A stretch of 64,000 nt of DNA, from contig CM000155.2 in assembly GCA_000004695.1 (NCBI GenBank), positions 1,600,001 to 1,664,000 on the forward strand, in the 5' to 3' direction. Under the pieces are notes generated by a model that saw only the letters and a program-made list of their open reading frames with translations, ran no database searches and was not told where the DNA came from. Position numbers and translations under genes: made by a program. Below are positions 3,285 through 52,908 of the stretch, one piece after another. Every line of letters starts with the position of its first letter. Position 1 is the stretch's first letter. The DNA comes from Dictyostelium discoideum (taxonomy: Eukaryota).

Positions 3285-3468
3285 AAAATAAAAAAAAATT
3301 TATAAAAAAAAAAAATAAAAATTAAAAATAATTTTTAATTAAATTTTAGACTTTTTTGTGAAAAAAAAAAAAAAAAAATAAAAAAATAAAAAAAAAAAAA
3401 AAAAAAAATAAAAAAAGGGAAAACTGGATTTTTTTTATTTTTTATTTTTATTTTTTTATTTTTTTATT

Positions 3469-4879
3469 TTAATCGAGTATACTTAAAAAGTCAATAGTTT
3501 TTCTGGAAGTACAAGCTTGACAATTACAAATAAAAGAATAAGTTTCTTTAAGAGTCGTTCTTCTTTTTTCAGTTGTTAATTTTTCACCATCTAAATAAGA
3601 TATGAAAAGTTCCTCACCTTTTTTAATTGGTCTTCTTGTACAGAAACGAATTGATTTATCATTTACAACTGGGGTTGCAATGAAAACATTTGGTTCGCAT
3701 GAATGGTTAAAGAAAGAACCTTGCATTAGAATACTTGCTAATTGTTGTGATGGAATCTCTTGGAAATCAAATGAATAGCCTAACTCATCCATTGGGTTTT
3801 TTTCAGAGAGAATTTTAATTCTAGAAGTTGGGAAAGCCACAGCATTCAATCTGATTATTGATTTAACACGATGATAAATCTCTTGAGTGATTTCACGATT
3901 TGAGAAAATTCCTTTTATAGATTGATAGATTTTCATATCTTTTCTACTTAAATATGAGGTTGTATGATTTTTTGATGGTTCAGTATGAACTAGTCTCTTT
4001 AAGAATTGGTCCATTTGCATTGAACGTAATGGTTCGTCTTGGTTACCACCAGTTGTATATTGCAATGAAAACACTTGTAACATTAATAAATACTCTGTTC
4101 TTTCTTCGTCATCCAATTTTGAAATATCATGATAAAATTTATTTAAAAAGTTTGTATGAACATTTGATGGTGTTCCACTGCATATTAATCTATGTCTTGC
4201 CATTCCCTGAGCTTCACATTCTGATGAACAAAATATAGCTTCATTACAATTTGGACAACAAACTCCACTAATAGAACCCAATGGTAAATTTGTCATACGA
4301 CTTAATGTATCCTCAATCTTTGGAAATTCTTTTGATTTTGATATCTCTCTATCATTTTGTAATTCAACTGGTTGCAATGATAAATGACAATTATTACAAT
4401 GTTCATCCTAAATAAAATAAAACATATGTTAATATTATGAAAAAATGTATATATATTATTTAAAAATTAATATTATTAATATTACATCATGTTTTTCATA
4501 TTTATGTTTTGCTAAATTTGTTGAAATTGAAAGTAATGAAGGTGCTTCAAAAAGTAATTCTTCTTCTTCAATATCTCTAGTTGCAAAGATACCTCTACCG
4601 TGAATTGGTGATTTCTTTACCATTGCATTACCCATTAAAGTTGATGATAAACCATTAAAGAATTCATAATCATCTTCATGATTTGGTACAATAACTGTAT
4701 CTGGATATAACATCATTTCTGCCTCTCTCTTTAAATCAACAATTTTTGGATTATGTATTAAAAGTAATGATTTTTCAAATGCAACAATTGCTTCATTATA
4801 TTTCTCTTTTCTAACTAAACAAATTCCTTTAATAACAAATGCTCTATATACAATAAAATATTATTATTATTATATATTC

Positions 4880-4933
<54 letters not shown>

Positions 4934-5457
4934 TAATCAATCACATTAATTAATTAATTCAATACATACTCTGATAAAATTTCACCTTCAGTTGAATTTT
5001 TAATAACTGTATTACAATCAATGATTGCATCATCTAAACGTGATAATGATTCTAATACTGTTGCACGTTGAATACGAACTGCATAATCGGCTGGTGTATG
5101 ACTAAGTACCCAATAATATCTTTTTAATGCTTCTTCAGGTTTACCATTCATAAATTCATCATATGCTTTTTGAATTGCAATTTGAATACTATAACTTAAA
5201 TGTAATGATGCTGGATCAACTGGTATTTTTGGTTTTATTTGTGGTGCATTTTGAAATCCTTTAATCTCTTCTTCAATATCTTCTTTACTTCTAATTGTAC
5301 TATTTATTGCATCTTTTGAATTTTTTGTTGAGAAAATATCTGACCCACCACCACTACCACCTGTACAAAAATATCTTGTTAAATTATTATAATTATTATT
5401 AAAATAAAATTTAATTAAATTTTCATTCTTTTTTAAACTTTGTAATCTATTTAACAT
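3469..5457 (-). CDS. SET and MYND domain (SMYD-like) lysine methyltransferase with N-terminal TPR repeats (3 exons)
   Basis: ATG 5455-5457. Exon 1 5457..~4970 (TPR-like: ALKRYYWVLSHTPADYAVRIQRATVLESL…, donor GTATGT). Intron ~4844-4969 (126 nt) contains the (TCAA)n tract. Exon 2 ~4843..4486 (AFVIKGICLVRKEKYNEAIVAFEKSL… then VKKSPIHGRGIFATRDIEEEELLFEAP, a SET N-terminal motif). Intron 4408-4485 (78 nt). Exon 3 4407..3469 (MYND-type Cys cluster DEHCNNCH…CCPNCNEAIFCSSECEAQGMARHRLIC, SET signature FFNHSCEPN, ELFISY). Total 594 aa. Phases verified as multiples of 3. Confidence 0.8.
4882..4944. repeat. (TCAA)n / (CAAT)n tetranucleotide microsatellite, ~15 units, intronic
   Basis: caatcaatcaatc… seen directly. 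Lies in intron 1 of the SMYD-like gene. Confidence 0.95.
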
Positions 5458-5636: not shown

Positions 5637-6037
5637 AATTTTTATTTTAAATTTTTTTTAATTTTTATTTTTTTTAACACACTTTTCATTTTCTTGTAAA
5701 TGAATTTATTTATTTTCACACCAACCAAGATTTAATATTACTTTTTATTTTTTTTTTTTTAATTTTTTTTAAAATCGTATTAGTTGATTTTAAAATCTAA
5801 ATGAAAAAGATTAATTATTATGTTTTATTATATACTTATAAATTATATAAAACATATTAATTGATTTTTTCTTTTAAAATCAATTAATATGTTTTAAAAT
5901 CAACCGATACAATTTTAAAAAAAAATGATTTATATTTACAATAAAAAATAATATATTATATTATTCTTTTATTCATTTTTTTTTTATTTTTAATTATTTA
6001 AAAAATCCATCTTTTTTTTTTTTTTTTGATAGAGTTT

Positions 6038-31230: not shown

Positions 31231-31843
31231 ATGGACCCTTTAGCCAATATTAAAAATGAAATAAATTTAATGAATCATAGAATTTCATCATTCGCTACTT
31301 ATGTAAATTATCAATTGTTAGAATTTAAACAGAGCATGTCAAATATTGGTGTGTAGTAAATAATAATTCAATTCTCAAGATTTTTTTTTTTTTTTTTTTT
31401 TTTTTAATTCCAAATCTTCACAATCATTGATTCTAACCTTTTTTTTTTTTTTTTTATTTTTTTTTTTTTTAATTTTTTCTGCAAATCAATGAAAATGATA
31501 ATTTCACTCAATGATTGATTAAAATAAATAATGTAAACAAAAAAATATATTTATTTTTTTAGAATTAATGTTACAAGAAAATATTGAATCAAAAAAAAAA
31601 ACAAAAACAGATACAGAACCAAATTCACCAACAAAACCACTTTCAACATCAATTCCAACTACAACAACAGCAGCAACTAGTCAATCAATCACTTCAACAA
31701 GTTTATCATCCTCCTCATCATTATCAAATCAAATTGCACAACCACCAATAATAAATGGACAGGTATTAAATTCTTCAATTTTAACTCCAACATCAAGAAA
31801 AAAACTTTCATTAGTTGACATAGATAAAAACAATTATAATAAC

Positions 31844-31940
<97 letters not shown>

Positions 31941-32260
31941 TAACAACAACAGATAAAAAAGAAGGAGAAAAGAATGAAAATGAAAATGAAAATGAAAATG
32001 AAAATGAAAATGAAAATGAAAATGAAAATGATATAATAGAAGAAGATAAAATAATAGAAAAAATGGATGAAGAATTAGAAAATGAACAAGTAGAACCAGT
32101 AGAACAAGTAAAACCAAAAACTCAAGGAGGTAGAAAAAAAGTATCTAAATTAACATTAGATTTTGGTATTGGTAAAAGACCAGTTAGAACTAAAACATTA
32201 ACACAATTAGGAATTGCGTTGGAAAAAGAAGATACTCCAAAAAAGAGACAAAGAAAATAA
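31231..32260 (+). CDS. hypothetical protein, low complexity, 2 exons (~271 aa)
   Basis: Exon 1 31231..31348 (MDPLANIKNEINLMNHRISSFATYVNYQLLEFKQSMSNI, donor GTGTGT). Acceptor ttttttag at 31562. Exon 2 31563..32260 (S/T-rich, (NYN)n poly-Asn, (NE)n from (GAAAAT)n, basic C-terminus …QGGRKKVSKLTLDFGIGKRPVRTKTLTQ…KKRQRK). Confidence 0.5.
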
Positions 32261-32295: not shown

Positions 32296-33363
32296 TTATA
32301 AAAACATTTGATTTTTATTATTTAATTTTAAAAATTGATTAATTGAATTTAAAGTTGGAGTTGAAGAACAACCACCAATTGATAAACAATTTAAAGCACC
32401 ACATGCAGAGGCAAACTCTAATGAATCTGATAATGATTGATTTTTATGAACTAAACTAAAGATTAAACCAGCCCTAAACGAATCACCAGCACCAGTGGTA
32501 TCGACAACTTTATCCGACGGTATAGCAGATGGCGTGAACCAGTAAGGTTCAATCCACTCATTATTCCAAGTGCCACCAATACCAAAACCATTTTTAGAAT
32601 CTGTTAAAATAAATAAAAACTTTTTAAATATACCATTATCTTTTTGAAACCATTGATTCATAATATTGAAAAATTCTTTAATCGGACCGTCTTTATTACC
32701 GAAATGGTCTGAACTACTCTGAAATATTAAATTTGAAGTATGTTCTATTGATGTGTTTTCCAATGAAAGTTCATCAACCACTGTATCTAATTCCTGATCC
32801 ATTATATATAAATTTGTATTGGTGATGATTGATTTCTTTATGACCTCCCTATTTATTAATGGATAGTTTGCGTCTAATGAAATCCAATGATTCGGTCCAA
32901 ATTGTAAATCAACATTCAATATTTTCTCTTTTATCTCTTTACATTGAACCATATATTGATCAATCTCTGGAAACCCAATTCCAAACATTGTTCTCTCTTT
33001 TTTATTACAAACGTAAATATCTGTTATTGGAGTATATTTTAAATAATTATTTTCATTGTTGTTGTTGATTTCTTGGATTTGTGTAAAGATTACATTTTTA
33101 TCACTAGTTTTACCTGTTGATTGATTTAATTTGTTTATAATGAATTTACCATTTAAATCATCTACTAAAGGTGGTACGATCAATTTTATTGATTCTTGAC
33201 CTTTTTCTACCCATTCATTTATACATACAAATGTATTTGATGCTTCACCACCTAATAAAATTTGTTCGCTAATAACTGGAGTATAGGTACCTAATGATTT
33301 TGGAAATTCTTCTATCTTTCTAACTTTATCAATACAAACTGTTCCAAATATTTGAATCGTCAT
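32296..33363 (-). CDS. pfkB-family carbohydrate kinase (ribokinase-like), single exon, 355 aa
   Basis: C-terminal pfkB signature DTTGAGDSFRAGLIFSL (DTxGAGD). N-terminal GG motif ILLGGEASN. True ATG at 33361-33363. Confidence 0.85.
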   Translation of the reverse strand: MTIQIFGTVCIDKVRKIEEFPKSLGTYTPVISEQILLGGEASNTFVCINEWVEKGQESIKLIVPPLVDDLNGKFIINKLNQSTGKTSDKNVIFTQIQEINNNNENNYLKYTPITDIYVCNKKERTMFGIGFPEIDQYMVQCKEIKEKILNVDLQFGPNHWISLDANYPLINREVIKKSIITNTNLYIMDQELDTVVDELSLENTSIEHTSNLIFQSSSDHFGNKDGPIKEFFNIMNQWFQKDNGIFKKFLFILTDSKNGFGIGGTWNNEWIEPYWFTPSAIPSDKVVDTTGAGDSFRAGLIFSLVHKNQSLSDSLEFASACGALNCLSIGGCSSTPTLNSINQFLKLNNKNQMFL

Positions 33364-34120
33364 TTATTTATTTTATTTTTTAAAAACTTTGATCTTCGTG
33401 ATCTTAGAGATTAAAATTAAATTAAATTTAATTAAATAAAATAAATGAAAAAAAAAAAAAAAATTAAATTAAATAAAATAAAAATAATATTTATTTTAAA
33501 AAAATTAAAAATAAAAAAAAAAAAAAAAAAAAATAAAAAAAAATAAAAAAAAAATAAATAATTGTCAAGAATGGGCAAAAATTTTTTTTTTTTTTTTTAT
33601 TTATAATTTATTTATTATGGGAAATAATTATTGTGCATTATTATTATTTTTTTATTTTTTATTTTGAAAAAATTAAAAAAACACAAAAAAACAGAAAATT
33701 GATTTGACATATTATTATTATAAATGTTTGTTAAAAATATAATTAGGAAAATTAAATACAAATTAAATAAAATATGAGTTCAATTGACTACTTGGTAAAC
33801 AATTGTGATTATAAAGTGTTTAAAATTTCAAATATTATATATATATTTTTTTTTTAAAGAATCAATCCAAAACATTAGTTCAATCAAATCAAGAGATAAT
33901 AAATCTTTAATTAGCTCTGCATTTTCATTAAATGATGGCCAAAGATCAAACTCCATCCAACCAGTTTCCCAAAATGACCAAGAAATGTGTTATTTGGGAG
34001 ATATTGATTATGGATGTACAATCATCTATCCAAATGGAAAAAAACATTAATAAATTACTCGATTTTATTTTATTATAAATTAATAAAATTGCTCAATTTC
34101 TTGTTTTTTAATACAATTTC

Positions 34121-34500
34121 TGAAATATTAAATTTGAAGTATGCTCTATTGATGTGTTTTCCAATGAAAGTTCATCAACTTCTGTATCTAATTCCTGATC
34201 CATTATATATAAATTTGTACTGGTGATAATTGATTTCTTTATGACCTCTTTATTTATTGATGGATAGTATGCCTCTAATGAAACCCAATGATTTGTTCCA
34301 AATATCTGTTATTGGAGTATATTTTAAATAATTATTTCATTGTTGCTGTTGTTGATTATTTCTTGGATTTGTGTAAAGATTACTTTTTTTTCACCAGTTT
34401 TGTCTGTTGATTGATTTAATTTGTTTATAATGAATTTACCATTTAAATCATTTACAAGTGGTATGATCAATTTTATTGATTCTTGACCTTTTCTACCCAG
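34121..34500 (-). pseudogene. truncated, internally deleted duplicate of the adjacent pfkB kinase gene
   Basis: 34121-34500 aligns to 32720-33213 of the intact gene at ~95% identity, with a ~114-bp internal deletion and small indels. Only the fragmentary ORF 34324..34536 remains (…GQESIKLIIPLVNDLNGKFIINKLNQSTDKTGEKKVIFTQIQEI vs parent …GQESIKLIVPPLVDDLNGKFIINKLNQSTGKTSDKNVIFTQIQEI). Confidence 0.8.
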
Positions 34501-35860
34501 ATAGATATTAAAAAAAAAAAGAAATTTTACAAACAAATTCCTACTTTTTTTATATTAAAAAAAAAATGAATTCATTTTAAAGCATTTCATAATATTTTTT
34601 TTTTCTTATTTTTTTTTCAAATTAATTATCATAAAATTAAACCTAAATTTTTATTAAAAGTATTAATTTTTTTTTCTTTACTAATTTTTAAGTTCTTTTT
34701 ATTAATTTAAAATTTATTTGCATTTTTTTTTTTTTTTATAAAAAAAATAATAATAATTTTATAAAATAAAATAAAATATTATAAAATAAAATAAAATATA
34801 ATAAAATAAAATAAAATAAATTAATAAATAAAATAAGATGGCTTTTTTTAAAAATTTTTTTAATTTTTTTTAGATAATCCCATTTGAATAAAATTTATTA
34901 TTATGTCTGTTTTCTTTGAAATATTTATTTCAAATTGAACATTTGGTATTAAATTATTTAATTCTCTTTTTTTTGATAATTCTCTATATTCATAATTTTA
35001 TTTTCAATTATTCAATATTCCAATCCAAAAATTAAATAAGATATTAAAAAAAAAAAATAAAAATAAAAATATGAAAAATAAAAAAATAATAAAAAAAAAA
35101 TAAAAAAGGAAAGTTAGTCAGTTTTTTTTGTTATCAAAAAAAAAAAAAATGAAAAAAAAAGTAATAAAAATAAAAATAATAAAAATAATTATAAAGATTA
35201 ATAAAGAAAAGAGCATCATCACTTTTGTTAATTAAATACCACTGATTTTTCTCTCATTTTTTATTTTTTTCCCTTTTTTTTTCATTTTTTTTTTTTTTCC
35301 TGAAGTTTCTTTTAAATTTTATTATTATTTTCTCAAAAAAAAAAAAAAAAAAAAAAAAAATAAAAAATTAAAAAAAATATTTTTTATTTTTTTATTTTTT
35401 TTTTTTATTCTTTCAGTACAAAAATAATTTATATATATCTATTATAGTCCATATTTTCCTTTTTAATAAAAATAACTTAAGTCTTTTTAATTATTATTTT
35501 TTATTTTCATTTATTTTATTCCATAATTTTCTTTAAATTTTTTTTTTTGTTTATTTTTTTAATTAAAAATTTAATTTAATTTTTTTTTTTTAAAAAAAAA
35601 ATATTATTTTAATTAAAAAAAATATTATTTTAATTATAAAAAAACAAAAAAATTTTTTTTTTGTGTTTAAATGAAAAAACCTCAATCAGAGTTTCAATAT
35701 TATTTCAAATAGCATTTATTTTATTAAATTTTTATATATATATATTTATATTACAAATAATCAATAAAAAATCAAGATTAAGGAATTAAAGAAAAAATTA
35801 AGTAAAAAAAAAAAATAAATAAATAAAAAAAAAAAAAAAAAAAGATATATCTTTGGTTTA

Positions 35861-35899
<39 letters not shown>

Positions 35900-35941
35900 T
35901 TTTTTTTTAAAATAAATCTTTTTTTCCTATAATTTTAAATA

Positions 35942-37975
35942 ATGGATTATAAAGTTAAACAACAAAAACAACAAACAACAACAACAACAACATCTAAAAA
36001 TATGGTAAATCATAAAGAACAACAACCAGATAATTTGGTTAAATCAATTACAAAATCAACAGAAGAATTAACAATTCAAGAGAATATTTTATCAACATCA
36101 ACTAGTGGACAATCAACAACAACAACAACAATAATTCAACCAGTAACAACAACAACAACAACAACTACCACTACTACCACTACAACATCAACTTCAAGTA
36201 GTGTTTTAATTGAAAATGAAAATGGTAGTAGTGTTGTAATTGAACATTTAAAACCAGAAGTAGAATATGGTAATATTGAATATAAATTACAATTAATTAG
36301 TCCAACACCTGATAGATTGGAGCATTTAACTTCACAGATGAAATGGAGGATTGGTGAAGGAGCAGGTGAGTGTCTCTATGAATTGGGTGTAAGTGATGAT
36401 GGTACAGCAGTTGGTCTATCGGATGAAGATATGACATTATCTTTGGAAACATTGAATAAGATGGCAAAGAAATTGAATGCTGATTTAACTGTAATTAGAG
36501 AGAGACCAGGTTTAAGTGGTGGTAAAGTAGTAGAGGCATTAATTAGGAAGTATGCATCGACAGAGGATTTTTCAGAGATTCGTGTCGTATGTTGTGGTAA
36601 TGTAGATGCAGGTAAATCAACATTATTGGGTGTATTGAAATGTGGTGTTTTAGATGATGGTAGAGGTAAGGCACGTCTCAATGTATTTCGTCATCGTCAT
36701 GAAGTAGAGAGTGGAAGAACCAGTTCAATCTCTCAAGAGATTGTTGGATTCGATAGTAAGGGTAAAATTGTAAACTATAATACCCTCCACTCTTCCCTCT
36801 CTCCAAGTGAAATTTGTGAAAGCTCTTCAAAGATCATCACCTTTGTAGATTTAGCAGGTCATGAAAAATACTTAAAAACAACATTGTTTGGTATGACATC
36901 AAGTTCACCAGATTATTGTATGATTGCTGTTGGTGCAAATACAATGGGTGCCACTGGTATGTGCAAAGAGCATTTGGGTATCGCGTTATCTTTACATATT
37001 CCAGTGTATATTGTTATCACAAAGATCGATAGAGCACCTGAAAATGTATTGGCAGCAACAATGACCGATATTAAAAAGATTTTACGTGGACCAGGTGCAA
37101 GAAAGTTACCAGTAGTCATTAAAAATCAAGATGATGTCGTTGTAGCAGCCAGAAACTTTGTATCGGATCGTGTCGTACCAATCTTCACCGTCTCAAATGT
37201 AACCGGTGAGAATTTAGATCTCTTAAGAATGTTTTTAAATCTTTTACCAGCTCGTAAGGAATGGGAATCTTTAGCTTTGAAACCGGCACAACTCGATATC
37301 GATTCAACTTGGAATGTTAGTGGTGTTGGTACAGTCGTTAGTGGTACAGTTATGAAAGGTGTCATTACAGCTGGTGAAACTTTATTGATTGGTCCAGATG
37401 ATAGTGGTAATTTCATACAAACTCAAGTAAAATCAATTCACACCAAACGTTTACCCGTTAAACATGTTAAAGCTGGTCAAACCGCTAGTTTAGCTTTGAA
37501 AAGGATTAAAAAGGAACAGATTAGAAAAGGTATGGTCATCATTCATCCGTCTGCTAAACCAGTGGCAACTCGTGAATTTGTCGCAGAGGTTTTAATCTTG
37601 TTTCATAGTACTACCATCAGTAAAAACTATGAAAGTGTCATCCATTGTCTTAGCACAACCCAAAGTGCACGTTTGATTGAGATGGACAAAGAAGTTCTTC
37701 GTACTGGTGATCGTGCTAGAGTTAAATTCAGGTACTTGCATCGTCCACAATTTTTAACTGTTGGTAGTAAATTTGTAATTCGTGAAGGTCGTTCAAAAGG
37801 TATTGGTCGTATTATTGAATTATGTCCGTTTGTTGTGGAACCAATCGTTCATAAAATTTCAAATGCACACGGTCACTCGAATGCCCATTTAACTAACGTT
37901 GCCAATGGTGGTGCCATAAAAAAACAAACTGTCACCAGAGCTCAGAGATTAAAAATTAAAACCTCTGATGGCTAA
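35942..37975 (+). CDS. GTP-binding protein 1 (GTPBP1/GTPBP2-family, EF-Tu-like translational GTPase), single exon, 677 aa
   Basis: G1 GNVDAGKST, G3 DLAGHEKY, G4 TKID. Domain II/III beta-barrel region follows. Poly-Thr N-terminal extension. Confidence 0.9.
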   Translation: MDYKVKQQKQQTTTTTTSKNMVNHKEQQPDNLVKSITKSTEELTIQENILSTSTSGQSTTTTTIIQPVTTTTTTTTTTTTTTSTSSSVLIENENGSSVVIEHLKPEVEYGNIEYKLQLISPTPDRLEHLTSQMKWRIGEGAGECLYELGVSDDGTAVGLSDEDMTLSLETLNKMAKKLNADLTVIRERPGLSGGKVVEALIRKYASTEDFSEIRVVCCGNVDAGKSTLLGVLKCGVLDDGRGKARLNVFRHRHEVESGRTSSISQEIVGFDSKGKIVNYNTLHSSLSPSEICESSSKIITFVDLAGHEKYLKTTLFGMTSSSPDYCMIAVGANTMGATGMCKEHLGIALSLHIPVYIVITKIDRAPENVLAATMTDIKKILRGPGARKLPVVIKNQDDVVVAARNFVSDRVVPIFTVSNVTGENLDLLRMFLNLLPARKEWESLALKPAQLDIDSTWNVSGVGTVVSGTVMKGVITAGETLLIGPDDSGNFIQTQVKSIHTKRLPVKHVKAGQTASLALKRIKKEQIRKGMVIIHPSAKPVATREFVAEVLILFHSTTISKNYESVIHCLSTTQSARLIEMDKEVLRTGDRARVKFRYLHRPQFLTVGSKFVIREGRSKGIGRIIELCPFVVEPIVHKISNAHGHSNAHLTNVANGGAIKKQTVTRAQRLKIKTSDG

Positions 37976-42790: not shown

Positions 42791-43153
42791 TTAATCCAAA
42801 ACTATTGGATTTTCAACTGACAGGCCATCATTATTTTCAATTTTTTGAGTTTGAGACTGTTGTTGAGTTTGAGACTGTTGTTGAATTTGATGCTGTTGTT
42901 GAGTTTGAGACTGTTGTGATGATGATGCCGATGGTAATGGAGATGATTTGATATTCTTTTTTTTCTTTTGGTTGGCTAATAATTGCTCTTCATTATCATC
43001 AACATATCTTTTTAAACCAAAACTGTTATTGTTATTGTTGTTGCTGTTGTTGTTGTTGTTGCTGTTGCTGTTGTTGTTGTTGCTGTTGCTGTTGTTGTTG
43101 CTGTTGTTGTTGTTATCATTGTTGATATTGTTGCTATTGTTGTTGTTATTGTT

Positions 43154-43202
<49 letters not shown>

Positions 43203-43536
43203 TTGTTGTTGTTGTTGTTGTTGTTGTTTCCTTTGGTATCAATATTCAATTTACTACGATGTCTTGAACTACGACTATTATTGTTAATATCTTGGCTAGC
43301 ACTATTCAACAATGGAGAGAATTGATTGGAATTAGTAAAAGATAATGATTCTGATGAAAGAAATTCTGATGAGGATGATAAAGATTCCATCGAGGAACTT
43401 GAAAAGGATGTTGGTGAATAGTTTGAAAAAGAACTTGAAGAAACTGAAATAGGGGTAAGCGATACTGGCGAGTTATGTGAAGTTTGAGTGCTACTCAAAA
43501 TATTTGGTCCAAATTGTGTATTATTTTTAGTAATAC

Positions 43537-43582
<46 letters not shown>

Positions 43583-43710
43583 ATCATTATTATTATTATT
43601 AATATTATTATTATTATTTTTAAGATGATTGAAACCATTATTGAAACTGTCAAAACTATTATTACCTCTATTAATACTATTGTTATGGGTATTGAAATTA
43701 TTGAAAAGAC

Positions 43711-43747
<37 letters not shown>

Positions 43748-43812
43748 GCTATTGCTATTGCTATTATCATTATTATTGCTATTATAATTATTATTATTGC
43801 TATTATTATTGC

Positions 43813-43882
<70 letters not shown>

Positions 43883-44232
43883 TTGATTAAAATTAAAAGT
43901 ATTGTGACCAAATACATGATCATTATTACCACTATTGTTATTGTTACTATTGGTGGCACCATGTCCAAAAGGATTTTGATAATTATTAGCTAAACCATTA
44001 CTATTGTTATTACTATAATTTGAAAAGGAAAACCTATTCAAGAATTGATAATTTGAATTTGGTATAGATTGATTATTTAAGAAAGGGATTGGATGTGGTG
44101 CATTCGAAATATTAAAAGGTGGATGATTATATTGAAAGTGATTGGCATAACTACTAGTCAAACCATTACCATTATTATTATTATTATTATTATTATTGTT
44201 GTTGGTATTGTTATTGATACTATTATTATTAC

Positions 44233-44315
<83 letters not shown>

Positions 44316-44619
44316 TTATTTTTATTATTATTATTACTATTATTATTATTGTTATTAATATTATTAAAATTTGAAGAAGTAGTAGTGGTAGTCGTTGTTC
44401 TATTTCCATTAAAGCTAGTGTTGTTATTATTATTACTATTATTATTATTGTTATTGCCAATAATGCCATTTATATTGCCATTACCATTATTATTATTTCC
44501 ATTTATATTACCATTATTATTACTATTGTTATTGTAACTATTTATAACCATTTGGTTGCCATTAAAATCACTGAAATCATTACTTCCATTATTGTTGTTA
44601 CGATTATGATTTGCATTTA

Positions 44620-44689
<70 letters not shown>

Positions 44690-45431
44690 CATCTCATTAA
44701 TACTGCCACCATTTGAGCCAATGTTACCAATATTATTGTTGTTATTGTTATTGCTATTATTCATGTTATTGATACAATGATTATTGTTATTTTCATTGGT
44801 AAACCCATTATTAGGGATAAAATGGTTATGATCACTACTTTGGTTATGAATACTATTGATATTGTTGTTGTTAATGTTATTGTTGTTATTATTGTTATTG
44901 TTGTAGTTATTGTTGTTATTATTATGAGTGTCACTACTGCTTGTATTGTGATGTTGGGAAGGTATTGATAAAGGATGATAGTCTCTAAAGTTTAGTTTCT
45001 CTTGTTGTTGATCTTCCATTTGTTGTAGTTGTTGCTGTTGAATTTTTTGAATGTGTTCTTGAATTCTCTGATGAAACGATGCATTATTCATATAATAGTT
45101 ACCACCATTATACATACTATTATTATTTATCAAATCCATTAAACCATTGCAATAACTTCCATAATTACTATCATTACTAAAATCTGTATTATTAAAGCTA
45201 TTGTTGTTTGCCCCAAATTGATTACCATTATTATTGCTATTATTAAAATTATTACCATAATTATTAAAACCATTAAATCCATTATTATTATTATTATTAT
45301 TATTAATATTATTATTATTTACATTATTATAACTATTATTATTATTATTATCATCATTAATATTATCATTATTATTAAAACCATTATTAAAATTATTATT
45401 ATAACTATTATTATTACTATTATTATTATAA

Positions 45432-45472
<41 letters not shown>

Positions 45473-45643
45473 TCTATTATTTCTATTATTATTATTATTA
45501 TTATTATTGTTATTGTTACTATTATTAAAACTAAAATTATTATTACTATTATTATTATTTTTGTAATTGTTATTATTATAATTATTATTATTATTATTAT
45601 CATGATTATAATTATTATTATGATTATTATTGTTATTGTTATA

Positions 45644-45699
<56 letters not shown>

Positions 45700-47086
45700 G
45701 ATTATTATTACCATATAAATTATTATTATTATTATTTAAATTATTATTATTTAAATTAACTTTTTGTTGTTTTAATCTTAAAATATATTGTTTTAATAAT
45801 TGATTAACTTCATAGACTTCTTTGTAAATGTGGTTTGGAACTGAAGTTTGTAAAACTAATTTTTGATATTGAATTTGTTGCTGTTCAGCTTTCAATATCA
45901 AATATTGTAAATCTACATCCACAACCTGTTGAGTTTGTAAAGCTGCTTGTTGAGAAGATGACCTTTTTGGTACCAAAATAGAATTTGGCGGTATAATATC
46001 ATAACTTCCATTATTATTATTACAATTATTTGTTTTTTGATGTTGTTTTGATATTTTAACTGGTCTACTAACTAAACAATTAATTATATCATCCAAAGGT
46101 GGTGATGCTATAGGATCCTCAAAAAACCATGGATGATTTAATGCTTCTTTTGTTGATATCCTATTTTTTGGACATAATGTTAACATTCTTAAAATTATAT
46201 CCAATGTAGAATTTGAAAAACTATATTTAAAAAAAGAATTTGTTAGAGGAAGAAAAAAAAAAAAAAAAAAAAACCAGAATAAAATTAAATATAATAATAT
46301 TTGTTACCTTTTGAATTTTGAAATATCTTTTAAAGATTTTGAAGGATATTTTTTAGATTTTGAACCTAAATATGGAGAATAACCTGATAATTTTGAAATA
46401 CCAGGCCAATTTTTTTCAGTTGGAGTTCCAAAAGTTTTAAAGATTAATTCCAATTGTAAAGAGTCGTTTGAACCTGCAAACATATAAAATCCAGTTAACA
46501 TCTCCACTATAATACAACCAACACTCCAAATATCGACTTCTGGTCCATAGTTCCTACTTCCCATTAATAATTCTGGTGGTCTATAAAATAATGATATAAC
46601 TTGATGAGCTAAATGAGGATTTCCAATATATGTCGTAAATCCAAAATCTGCTATCTTTAAATCGAACCTTGGGTTAATTAATAAATTTGATGCTATAATT
46701 TAAAAATTTTTTAAAAAAAAAAAAAAAAAAACAATAAAGTAAATAAAAAAGTATTTTGTGTGTTTTGTTTTGTTTTTTTTTTTTTTTTTTTTAATTAGTA
46801 AGTATGCTCAATTACAAGAAATCGAAGTTACCACGAATATAAAAAAACATTAAGTCTTTTTACAATACAATTCATTTTTTTAAAAGAAACATACGTTTAA
46901 TATCCAAATGCATAATCTTTTGACTATGCAATTCATCTAAACCTTCCAATAATTGGTGAATAAAAAATTTCGTGCATGATAATGTCATATATTTATTTTT
47001 GGGTGATATAAATTTCCAAAGATCATATTCTAAATATTCAAATACCATAACCAATTTATCATCTAATTAATAATAATAATATTAAT

Positions 47087-49564: not shown

Positions 49565-50758
49565 TTATACATTTGTTAATGGACCAAAAATTTCATAAGA
49601 AATATTTTCTTTTGGATAACCTAATTCAATTAATTGTTTATTAATTGCAGACATAAAAGATACTGGACCACAGATGAAAACTTTAGTATCTTTAATTTGA
49701 GAAGGATTGATGAATTTTTCTAATTTATCTTTGGTGATTTGACCATCAGTTTCAGAATGAACAGTTGATACCTTTACTTTATTTGATTTTTCCAATTGGG
49801 ATAATTCATTTGCAAATGGTTGATATTGTTTGTTCTTTGAAGAGTGAACAAAGGTGACTTCTCTTTCTGGTTGTTTAGCTAAAGTTGCCTTTGCCATACT
49901 TAATAATGGAGTGATACCAACACCACCACTAACCAAAAGGATTGGATTGCTTGATAATTGGTCGACTACATAGTCACCAGCTGGAGGGGAGAGTAAAACT
50001 TTATCGCCAACCTTAACATTTGCATGCAAATGATTTGAAACTACACCATTTGGATCAGACTTTTTGAGGGCGTCTTCTTTCTTTACACTAATACGATAGT
50101 ATTGTTCGGATGGTGTGTCTGATAAACTGTAATGTCTGATGTGAGTTCTTTGTTCACCATTCTCTAAAGTTAATGGTACCTTAATGGTAATGTATTGGCC
50201 TGGAATATAGGTTGCAATTGGTTTACCATCGGCTGGTTTAAAGTAGAATGAAATGATATTGGACGACTCTTCAACCTTTCTATCGACAATGAATTCACGA
50301 GTATCTCTCCAACCTCCAATTTGCTCCTCTGTAACTTTATATAAAGCGGCTTCAGCATCAATGAAAGCTTGAGCAATTACACCATAAGCTTCACCCCATG
50401 CACCTAAAATCTCATCAGTGGCAGCATCTTGAAGAACTTCTTTAATTGCACCCAATAAATTTGTACCAACAATTGGATAATGTTCTGGTAATACACCCAA
50501 TGCAACATGTTTATGAACGATTGGAGCTAAATTTAATTCATTCAATTTATCAATATGAATGGCAGCTTGTAAAACTGTATTTGCTAAAGCATTTTGTTGT
50601 TTTCCTTCTCTTTGATTTGAATGATTGAAAATATTTAAAAGTTGTGGATTAGCTTTAAACATATTTCTATAGAAGGTTGTAGTGATATTAACTCCATGGA
50701 CTTGTAAAACAGGTACTGTTGCTTTAATAATTGAAATTGATTGTTGACTTAAAGACAT
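49565..50758 (-). CDS. fhbA: flavohemoglobin (globin + FAD/NAD-binding reductase; NO dioxygenase), single exon, 397 aa
   Basis: Globin domain (…PIVHKHVALGVLPEHYPIVG…). FNR-like module with RHYS FAD-binding motif (THIRHYSLSD), GGVGITP, ICGP. The 397-aa length matches what I recall for Dictyostelium DdFHa; symbol assignment is from memory, not a search. Confidence 0.88.
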   Translation of the reverse strand: MSLSQQSISIIKATVPVLQVHGVNITTTFYRNMFKANPQLLNIFNHSNQREGKQQNALANTVLQAAIHIDKLNELNLAPIVHKHVALGVLPEHYPIVGTNLLGAIKEVLQDAATDEILGAWGEAYGVIAQAFIDAEAALYKVTEEQIGGWRDTREFIVDRKVEESSNIISFYFKPADGKPIATYIPGQYITIKVPLTLENGEQRTHIRHYSLSDTPSEQYYRISVKKEDALKKSDPNGVVSNHLHANVKVGDKVLLSPPAGDYVVDQLSSNPILLVSGGVGITPLLSMAKATLAKQPEREVTFVHSSKNKQYQPFANELSQLEKSNKVKVSTVHSETDGQITKDKLEKFINPSQIKDTKVFICGPVSFMSAINKQLIELGYPKENISYEIFGPLTNV

Positions 50759-51519: not shown

Positions 51520-52908
51520 TTAATTTTCAATAATATTTTTTACACCTCTTAACATTTGATTTTCTTCGAGGACTGGAGTTAATGGACCAAATAATTCATA
51601 ATGTACATTTTCTTTATGGAAACCTAATTGTAATAAATCTTTGTTAACTTGCATCATAAAAGGTACAGGACCACAAATGTAAACGTCGGTTTCAGCGATT
51701 TCAGCTTGATCAACATGTTGAGTTGAATATTTTTCAATGATTTCTTTATTGATATGACCTTGATTTTCAGAGTATACTAAATTGATTTTAAGATTACCAG
51801 TTTCTTTATAATCGTCTTCCAATTGTTTAAGTTCCTCTTTAAATGGTTGACTTGATTCGCAATGAGTTGAGAAAATGAAATTTATTTTTCTATCTGGTTG
51901 TTGGACCAATGTCTCTTTAAGCATACTAAATAACGGGTTAATACCAACACCACCACAAATTAAAAGGATTGGAGTCTCAGAATCGTTATTTACCACGAAA
52001 TCGCCTGCTGGGACCGACATTGGTACTACATCACCCACTTTAATATTATTATGAAAATGATTTGATACTATACCATTTGGTGTATTCTTACCGAGTTCTT
52101 TCTTTATTGAAATACGATAGTATTCATCATTTGGTTTATCTGATAAACTGTAATGTCTGACATAAGTTCTCATCTTATCAGTTGGTACATCAACACCATC
52201 ACCCGGTAATGTAATCTTTACAGTAATATATTGTCCAGGAATATAAGTAGCTATCTCTTTACCATCATATGCTTTAAAGTAAAATGATTTAATTAATGGT
52301 GTCTCTTCTTCAATTCTATCAACTACAAACTCTCTCGTATCTTTCCAACCACCAATTTGTTCCTCAGTCTCAAAGTATAAATCTTCTTCTGCATCCATAA
52401 ATGCTTGTGCAACTGCTCTATATGCCTCAGTCCATGCAGCTATAAATAATTAAATTAAAAAAATTAAAAAAAAATATAAAATATATTAATATAATTTAAA
52501 TTATTATTATTATTATTATTTACTATTATTTATAAATAAATAAATAAATAATTTACCCATAATTTCAGGAGTTGCTTCATCTTGCATTACAGTTTTCATA
52601 GCACCCAATAAATGAGCACCAACAATTGGATACATTTCAGGTGTAATACCTAATGCAACGTGTTTATGAACGATTGGCATTAAATTGATTTCATTTAATT
52701 TTTCAATATGAATTGCAGATTGTAAAATTGTATTGGCCAAAGCCACCGGTTGTTTCTGATTTCTTTGATTTGAATGATTGAATATATTTAAAAATTGTGG
52801 TTGTGCTTCAAACATATTCTTATAGAAGAGGCTAGTGATCTCAACTCCATATTTCTCCAAAAGTGGTACAGTTGATTTAATTATTTGAATTGATTTTTGA
52901 CTTAACAT
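51520..52908 (-). CDS. fhbB: flavohemoglobin paralog, 2 exons, 423 aa
   Basis: Exon 1 52908..52557 (MLSQKSIQIIK…TPEIMG, donor GTAAAT). Intron 52440-52556 (117 nt). Exon 2 52439..51520 (AAWTEAYRAVAQAF…RHYSLSD…GGVGINP…ICGP…). Total 1272 nt including the stop = 423 aa. Tandem with and ~60% identical to the 397-aa gene. Confidence 0.88.

Follow-up and report, generated by a model that had tools for sequence, protein, structure and literature searches.

Partial, DNA-level copies of neighboring genes, known as non-processed pseudogene fragments or "gene relics," are truncated at both ends, carry frameshifts and stop codons, evolve without constraint, and lack both a poly(A) tail and a target-site duplication. 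We describe an element that resembles them in all these respects in a 64,000-nucleotide stretch of the Dictyostelium discoideum AX4 genome (GenBank assembly GCA_000004695.1, contig CM000155.2, forward-strand positions 1,600,001 to 1,664,000; hereafter the window, in whose coordinates positions are given), where a piece of a gene for a PfkB-superfamily sugar kinase lies a short distance upstream of the intact gene. Unlike the typical case, this copy is short (381 bp), an orphan gene stands between it and its parent, and its setting is a mosaic block specific to one haplotype, not a clean tandem array, although none of these differences is essential. We regard the element as an ordinary, lineage-specific pseudogene fragment of this well-known class, roughly as old as the split of the AX4 haplotype from wild isolates and lodged in an intergenic spacer with fast turnover.

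The closest parallel within the genus is the Dictyostelium tgrBC locus, where haplotype-specific "unalignable" regions contain partial gene fragments (Holland, Ahmed and Levin, PNAS 2025; PMC12745789). The likeness extends to the same set of genomes and to the architecture, in which conserved flanking genes enclose unalignable blocks that hold duplicates or partial fragments of their neighbors. However, tgrBC covers 104 to 250 kb and dozens of genes and has been interpreted as a hotspot of hypermutation subject to diversifying selection, whereas the region described here amounts to ~1.2 to 2.6 kb between two housekeeping-type genes, with a single kinase fragment and no sign of selection. Among the searchable papers, PMC12745789 included, none was found that mentions the gene identifiers of the locus.

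The parent, the copy, and the parts of the alignment between them are as follows.

32296 to 33363, minus strand: PfkB-superfamily kinase gene, the parent; single exon, intact, 355 amino acids (open reading frame [ORF], PF00294, and exact AX4 protein match)
34119 to 34499, minus strand: probable pfkB pseudogene fragment, 381 bp; parent residues ~51 to 216 less ~39 codons, disrupted by two frameshifts and two in-frame stop codons
32718 to 32898, minus strand: parent segment A, copied; residues ~156 to 216, the 3′ part in gene orientation; 168/181 identical to 34119 to 34299
32899 to 33014, minus strand: parent stretch of 116 bp that is absent from the copy; placements up to 32903 to 33018, with AAAT at both edges
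33015 to 33213, minus strand: parent segment B, copied; residues ~51 to 116; ~94% identical to 34300 to 34499, with indels of −1, +6, −3, and −1
34299 to 34300, minus strand: junction of the 116-bp deletion in the copy, CCAAAT followed by ATCTG on the plus strand

A gapped local alignment, in which segment B falls into five blocks, pairs 353 identical bases among 375 aligned (94.1%), and perfect runs of at least 35 bases occur within it. BLASTN returned E values of 2e-75 and 3e-74, and the Smith-Waterman score of 488 compares with 26.7 ± 2.6 for dinucleotide shuffles (z of about 176), far above the level of chance similarity between AT-rich sequences. The sequence-only reading, made earlier from the letters alone, had paired 34121 to 34500 with 32720 to 33213 at ~95% identity in the same orientation and had argued that chance resemblance was improbable; both points hold, with the limits now refined to 34119 to 34499 and 32718 to 33213. 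Its estimates of ~114 bp missing from the copy and of ~760 bp beyond the 5′ end of the parent become 116 bp and 755 bp, the latter measured from the parental ATG (33363) to the start of the copy (34119), which lies upstream. Since parent and fragment occupy the same strand, they form a direct repeat. No further copy of the kinase sequence was found within the 64-kb window by BLASTN.

The breakpoint mapping and microhomology check that the same reading had proposed reveal a 4-bp AAAT (ATTT in the sense orientation) at both edges of the internal gap, because of which the gap has five equivalent placements, from 32899 to 33014 through 32903 to 33018. The small indels of the copy relative to the AX4 parent (−1, −3, −1, and +6) all fall in homopolymer (A/T) runs or in an AAC repeat. 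They break the frame, as had been predicted: translated in the orientation of the parent, the fragment shows a frameshift at its 5′ edge and a stretch of 13 out-of-frame codons that holds two stops, and it regains the reading frame downstream because −1 and −116 add to −117. No ATG-initiated ORF spans the fragment, and the annotation of an AX2-type assembly places no gene call there. The C-terminal region (amino acids ~278 to 349), the only part of the parent that matches PfkB models or solved kinases, is missing from the copy; it has no ATP-binding motif, and the intact frame with an ATP-binding signature that would mark a functional PfkB kinase was not found. Meanwhile, significant homology to the parent, disabling lesions, and substitutions at a neutral rate (from small counts) are all present, as in non-processed pseudogenes. 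We consider it about 85% probable that the element is a non-functional, non-processed pseudogene fragment.

The product of the parent gene matches D. discoideum AX4 XP_629616.1 (UniRef Q54D80, "uncharacterized sugar kinase") exactly, which makes the locus a eukaryotic nuclear one. Its PF00294 (PfkB) match (E = 1.4e-16, 61.1 bits against a gathering cutoff of 25.8) covers only residues 279 to 337 and, with the exact protein match, confirms the earlier identification of an intact pfkB gene. Residues ~276 to 349 are the only portion that aligns to solved chains of ribokinase, ketohexokinase, and sulfofructose kinase and to NCBIfam models; the best of the latter, TIGR02152, scores 49 bits against a cutoff of 300, and all such matches are limited to the C-terminal ~60 residues. 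None of the substrate-specific NCBIfam subfamilies (ribokinase, 1-PFK, KDG kinase, and others) was matched at its cutoff. The translation contains VVDTTGAGDSFRAG around residue 300 and LLGGEASN around residue 37, which we take to be PfkB signatures, namely, the C-terminal ATP-binding/catalytic DTxGAGD and the N-terminal GG motif, respectively. In a protein search, full-length relatives (94 to 98% coverage, 28 to 43% identity) came from other dictyostelids and from metagenomes, with one pfkB of this type per genome. The gene-wide ratio of nonsynonymous to synonymous divergence (dN/dS) is 0.13 between AX4 and two other D. discoideum alleles (L003 and L007, below), which indicates purifying selection on what is predicted to be a functional, divergent kinase of the PfkB superfamily. 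Within the stretch covered by the fragment (32718 to 33213, residues 51 to 216), the AX4 parent has 7 to 8 lineage-specific changes, 5 of them nonsynonymous, while one of the other alleles (L003, below) has only 3; these residues may form a locally relaxed or fast-evolving surface segment. The window has a G+C content of 21.8%, with poly-Asn coding tracts and homopolymer-rich spacers.

We compared the locus with orthologous loci from seven assemblies among the genomes of Holland, Ahmed and Levin (PMC12745789), found by exact protein look-up. Of these, L001 most likely corresponds to AX2-214. The most likely identities of L003 and L007 are the wild D. discoideum isolates OT3A and CR116C, and those of L006 and L008 the "possible cryptic species" S6B and M4B; D. 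citrinum is represented by L004 and D. firmibasis by L005. The fragment is present in L001 (GCA_054883475.1, an independent Nanopore and Illumina long-read assembly) at 4865 to 5245, with 100% identity and in the same context. It is absent from the orthologous site in L003, L004, L005, L006, and L007 (5/5), all of which have the kinase gene, so that the comparison with other strains that the sequence-only reading had called for finds the fragment in L001 only. The sole match to the kinase in the read archive is L002, a 1.1-kb contig without flanks. Given that the region is 78% A+T and flanked by long homopolymers, an error of assembly or collapse in the reference might be imagined, but the recovery of the same 381 bases in the same context from an independent assembly makes its probability negligible, and we rule it out.

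Differences were polarized by aligning the fragment to six orthologous alleles, with 373 comparable sites. Fifteen changes are specific to the fragment, or 16 when a C-to-A change beside the gap is counted under a single-deletion alignment. Seven others struck the AX4 parent after copying, among them AAA to AGG, AAT to GAT, and GAT to GGT, and there the fragment still has the bases found in L003/L007 and the outgroups. At four sites L003 differs from both fragment and AX4, and only one of these (a shared T) looks like a derived state common to the fragment and the AX4 parent. The branch leading to the fragment accordingly has a length of 15 to 16, that to the AX4 parent 7, and that to L003 3 to 4. 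The +6 indel of the copy is a contraction of an AAC/AGC (Asn/Ser) repeat in the AX4 parent, the fragment having kept the AGC codon seen in L003. Many derived states are common to the fragment, AX4, L003, and L007 as opposed to L006, D. citrinum, and D. firmibasis, and we conclude from these shared states that the fragment arose inside D. discoideum sensu stricto.

That the fragment keeps several ancestral states lost by the AX4 parent could also be expected if it were the remnant of an old, full-length tandem paralogue that predated the D. discoideum complex and was lost elsewhere. This is most improbable, and the placement inside D. discoideum sensu stricto, given by the shared derived states, rules it out. 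The identity of the fragment to outgroup sequences is 75 to 85%, compared with ~90% to D. discoideum alleles (a value depressed by misaligned indels) and 94% to the parent when properly gapped. Furthermore, the spacers of D. citrinum and D. firmibasis are too short to have held a paralogue, and each genome has a single pfkB of this type.

Synonymous divergence (dS) between AX4 and L003/L007 is 0.10 to 0.11 for pfkB and 0.06 to 0.07 for the neighboring GTPase gene, or 0.03 to 0.055 per branch. Since the divergence on the fragment's own branch (16/373 = 0.043) lies within this range, the copy is estimated to be about as old as the split of the AX4/NC4 haplotype from the wild isolates L003/L007, which is older than 94% identity suggests. 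The earlier view that high identity implies a recent local duplication is therefore retained for local derivation and set aside for recency, except on a between-species scale. With a base-substitution rate of 2.47e-11 per site in each generation and a θ of 0.00076 for D. discoideum (PMC7466956), the age of the fragment would be on the order of 1e9 generations and its divergence about 50 times the standing diversity. The fragment-specific substitutions comprise 12 nonsynonymous and 4 synonymous changes, where 81% nonsynonymous is expected without constraint. In pattern and rate, as well as in its slippage-type indels, this looks like neutral decay without constraint, as judged from small counts.

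Around the fragment lie two features that the sequence-only reading had overlooked, a block specific to one haplotype and an annotated gene between parent and copy.

33562 to 34760, no strand: block found only in AX4/AX2; limits approximate (~1.2 to 1.4 kb), the left being the end of the L006 alignment and the right the end of the L007 alignment
33774 to 33817 and 33915 to 34050, plus strand: two exons of DDB_G0292534, an annotated orphan gene (product P0061, 59 amino acids) between parent and copy, transcribed away from the parent

By BLAST anchors, AX4 bases ~33562 to 34760, which hold both the fragment and DDB_G0292534, have no counterpart in the compared genomes outside AX4/AX2. The spacer that contains them was measured between pfkB and the conserved GTPase gene (35942 to 37975).

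AX4: 2578 bp, window 33364 to 35941
L003: 2405 bp, L003 3596 to 6000
L007: 2373 bp, L007 3628 to 6000
L006: 3685 bp, L006 2316 to 6000
D. citrinum (L004): 1130 bp, L004 4871 to 6000
D. firmibasis (L005): 1287 bp, L005 4714 to 6000

Between the anchors equivalent to the AX4 block, D. citrinum has ~209 bp and D. firmibasis ~447 bp, while the discoideum clade has three mutually non-homologous, lineage-specific fillings of ~1.2 kb (AX4), ~1.3 kb (L003/L007), and ~2.6 kb (L006). These results suggest that the ancestral spacer was short and that the same site was filled differently by three discoideum-clade lineages; the pfkB/GTPase spacer thus appears to be a small hotspot of insertion and turnover. 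The filling of L006 contains, at 3337 to 5089 on the minus strand, an extra gene model of 551 amino acids (ORFs of 400 and 101 amino acids) with no counterpart at the site in the other genomes; no Pfam domain was found in this model or in P0062. On the pfkB side, the proximal promoter of AX4 (~200 bp, 33364 to 33561) aligns with L006 (5800 to 6000). In L003/L007 only ~22 bp upstream of the pfkB ATG align (5978 to 6000), so most of the promoter was lost to their filling, with the gene itself left intact.

A block that is lineage specific and mosaic, at a site that received different insertions in different lineages, and with at least one further piece related to an unrelated locus of a different genome, might be a non-autonomous mobile element or DNA transposon carrying captured pieces of host genes. 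We consider this very unlikely, since no ORF of 40 or more amino acids in the block has a Pfam domain, pairs of inverted repeats at its edges are only 70 to 83% complementary and apparently of low complexity, and the 64-kb window holds no second copy of the block. Nor is there a tRNA gene nearby, as tRNA-targeted Dictyostelium retroelements would need. The AX4 block yielded no Rfam family and no credible terminal repeats, and Rfam and tRNA scans of the whole window returned nothing. The earlier remark that no obvious transposon flanks the copy is in line with this lack of transposon hallmarks within the window.

The annotated exon model of DDB_G0292534 reproduces P0061 exactly, and no Pfam domain was found in this protein. 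Among the genomes compared, the gene exists only in the AX4/AX2 haplotype; exact look-ups of P0061 and of the fragment's ORF for wild strains found nothing on record, and among 5.8 billion proteins the sole relative of P0061 is one gene model from an M4B-type genome. At the DNA level its similarity is limited to ~145 bp (33838 to 33984), which are ~89% identical to L008 5517 to 5661, a non-syntenic locus that shares nothing else relevant with the window. This match runs across the intron/exon boundary of the AX4 annotation, so the gene model may be spurious; alternatively, it may represent a de novo ORF that grew out of a captured fragment. The neighboring gene in L008 (5985 to 7117, 176-amino-acid ORF), used as a protein query, gave no hit at E ≤ 1e-10, its own product included, which is a limit of the word-indexed search.

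How the copy came to lie in this block may be considered in light of its ends. D. discoideum has active non-long-terminal-repeat (non-LTR) retrotransposons, whose machinery could have made a processed copy of the pfkB mRNA, with the internal gap as a cryptic splice; the parent is intronless, so the lack of introns in the copy is uninformative. Such an origin is scarcely credible, given that both ends of the copy lie in mid-coding sequence, that no poly(A) stands at its 3′ end (the sense-strand sequence downstream is AATTGTATTAAAAAACAAG), that no flanking direct repeat longer than 5 bp was found, and that none of the five placements of the gap is bounded by GT and AG. We reject it on these grounds.

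Instead, we expect that a DNA-level event copied ~500 bp from the middle of pfkB, in direct orientation, into AT-rich intergenic DNA 0.75 kb upstream, in D. discoideum sensu stricto and at about the time when the AX4/NC4 haplotype parted from the L003/L007 lineage. Thereafter the copy would have accumulated ~16 substitutions and slippage indels in homopolymer and AAC runs, along with a 116-bp loss between two AAAT motifs. As to the route, we tentatively favor, at somewhat less than even odds, a single complex repair of a double-strand break in a fragile AT-rich spacer, by template switching or synthesis-dependent "patchwork" insertion. Short stretches copied from nearby and ectopic templates would then have produced a mosaic of AT-rich filler, the ~145-bp piece whose relative lies elsewhere, and the piece of pfkB; the skip of 116 bp would be either a template jump at microhomology or a deletion that microhomology mediated at a later time. 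Insertions of the templated or "patchwork" type, made where double-strand breaks are repaired, are known from microhomology-mediated template switching of the kinds termed microhomology-mediated break-induced replication (MMBIR) and fork stalling and template switching (FoSTeS). As in such insertions, short nearby and ectopic pieces are here joined with filler, 4 bp of microhomology mark the internal jump, and a nearby template has been copied, which in those systems occurs in either orientation within a few kilobases. Unlike in those insertions, the outer junctions are unreadable here, and since the event is millions of generations old, later independent deletions could mimic a template jump.

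The direct orientation of the copy and the constant 1401-bp register of segment A are equally what a tandem duplication would leave. The duplicated unit would be the 1401 bp from 32718 to 34118 (the 5′ 646 bp of pfkB, its promoter, and DDB_G0292534), repeated head to tail with a junction between 34118 and 34119, and the second copy would have lost ~0.9 kb past the equivalent of 33213 as well as the 116 bp. At its left edge the fragment borders unique sequence, just as it would at such a junction, and AT-rich DNA has more than its share of the duplications and deletions in D. discoideum (PMC9849192). However, the rest of the unit is not traceable to the right of 34499: comparison of 34500 to 34800 with 33214 to 34118 yields only homopolymer and low-complexity similarity (z = 3.3), and a BLAST search of the spacer for residual homology, made without low-complexity filtering, returned only AT-rich noise. 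Tandem duplication also requires four events, with insertion of the small-gene block first, then the duplication, then two deletions, and spontaneous duplication is rare, at 1.18e-8 per gene per generation (PMC9849192). We regard this route as less probable than not. The data do not discriminate strongly between it and break repair, which is slightly favored because the block is a mosaic, the ancestral spacer was short, and 4 bp of microhomology mark the internal skip.

Several points weigh against the account given here. The call of non-functionality draws on sequence decay alone, and the fragment has 4 to 5 small indels, fewer than predicted by the indel-to-substitution ratio of about 2:1 in mutation accumulation (PMC7466956). 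L001, the only other carrier of the fragment, shows 0 substitutions relative to the window over 13 kb and therefore represents the same laboratory lineage, not independent evidence from the population. The "ectopic" status of the ~145-bp piece depends on a single locus from one rearranged genome. Finally, microhomology or a target-site duplication at the outer ends is unreadable without an empty-site allele with alignable flanks, and there is none because other D. discoideum isolates carry the different 1.3-kb filling.

By either route of formation, we found no evidence for function, and the fragment is presumably inert today. Antisense RNAs and endogenous small interfering RNAs (siRNAs) derived from pseudogenes are known from mouse oocytes, trypanosomes, and plants, and here, too, a pseudogene piece of high identity is so placed that read-through from a neighbor would give antisense RNA. 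DDB_G0292534, on the plus strand, has its stop at 34050, and the fragment begins 68 bp on, at 34119, antisense to that transcript; read-through could thus yield ~380 nucleotides antisense to pfkB mRNA, with perfect runs of 35 or more bases at 94% overall identity, and so control the kinase through RNA interference or antisense pairing in trans, privately to the AX4/NC4 lineage. Unlike in the known cases, only the geometry speaks for such a role, which we judge highly improbable. Two AATAAA signals (34049 and 34082) intervene between the stop codon and the fragment, the divergence of the fragment equals the neutral yardstick rather than falling below it, and all other lineages compared lack the fragment while keeping pfkB intact. 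Nor was an Rfam family found in the window. Were such a role true, a metabolic kinase would be controlled, in the AX4/NC4 lineage alone, by antisense RNA or siRNA from a pseudogene, and, more broadly, the spacer would represent in miniature what has been described at the tgrBC locus (PMC12745789), namely, haplotype-specific hotspots that capture gene fragments.

Other repeats and duplications occur in the window. Two adjacent flavohemoglobin-type paralogues on the minus strand (49565 to 50758 and 51520 to 52398) have globin, FAD-binding, and NAD-binding domains, the second lacking the globin part as a single ORF; the pair is 67 to 71% identical at the DNA level, which suggests an older tandem duplication. 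An ORF of 1137 amino acids (42791 to 46204, minus strand), in which no Pfam domain was found, has internal repeats at 43519 to 45776 (72 to 76%), and ~110 bp of it (43511 to 43630) match L008 7826 to 7936 and 10252 to 10363 at 90 to 92%, probably as a shared low-complexity coding repeat. The ORF at 31568 to 32260 (plus strand) contains an (AAT)n tract at 31845 to 31940, which encodes ~35 consecutive Asn residues, followed by (GAAAAT)n at 31976 to 32030, an Asn-Glu repeat. Such repeats are typical of simple-sequence repeats in Dictyostelium coding regions, and orthologous models of this ORF range from 271 to 361 amino acids among genomes.

For biology at large, the fragment carries little weight, as it adds a single further duplicated pseudogene fragment to a reference genome already studied in depth. 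Its practical consequence is that sequencing reads, probes, PCR primers, and RNA interference or CRISPR reagents directed at residues ~51 to 216 of the kinase will cross-hit the fragment in AX2/AX4 and not in wild isolates. It also counsels caution in dating, since 94 to 95% identity is not "recent" at ~2.5e-11 substitutions per site per generation. For Dictyostelium, the locus offers a clean, datable example of the turnover of intergenic spacers, in which a pseudogene partly preserves an ancestral allele and records changes that later struck the functional copy.

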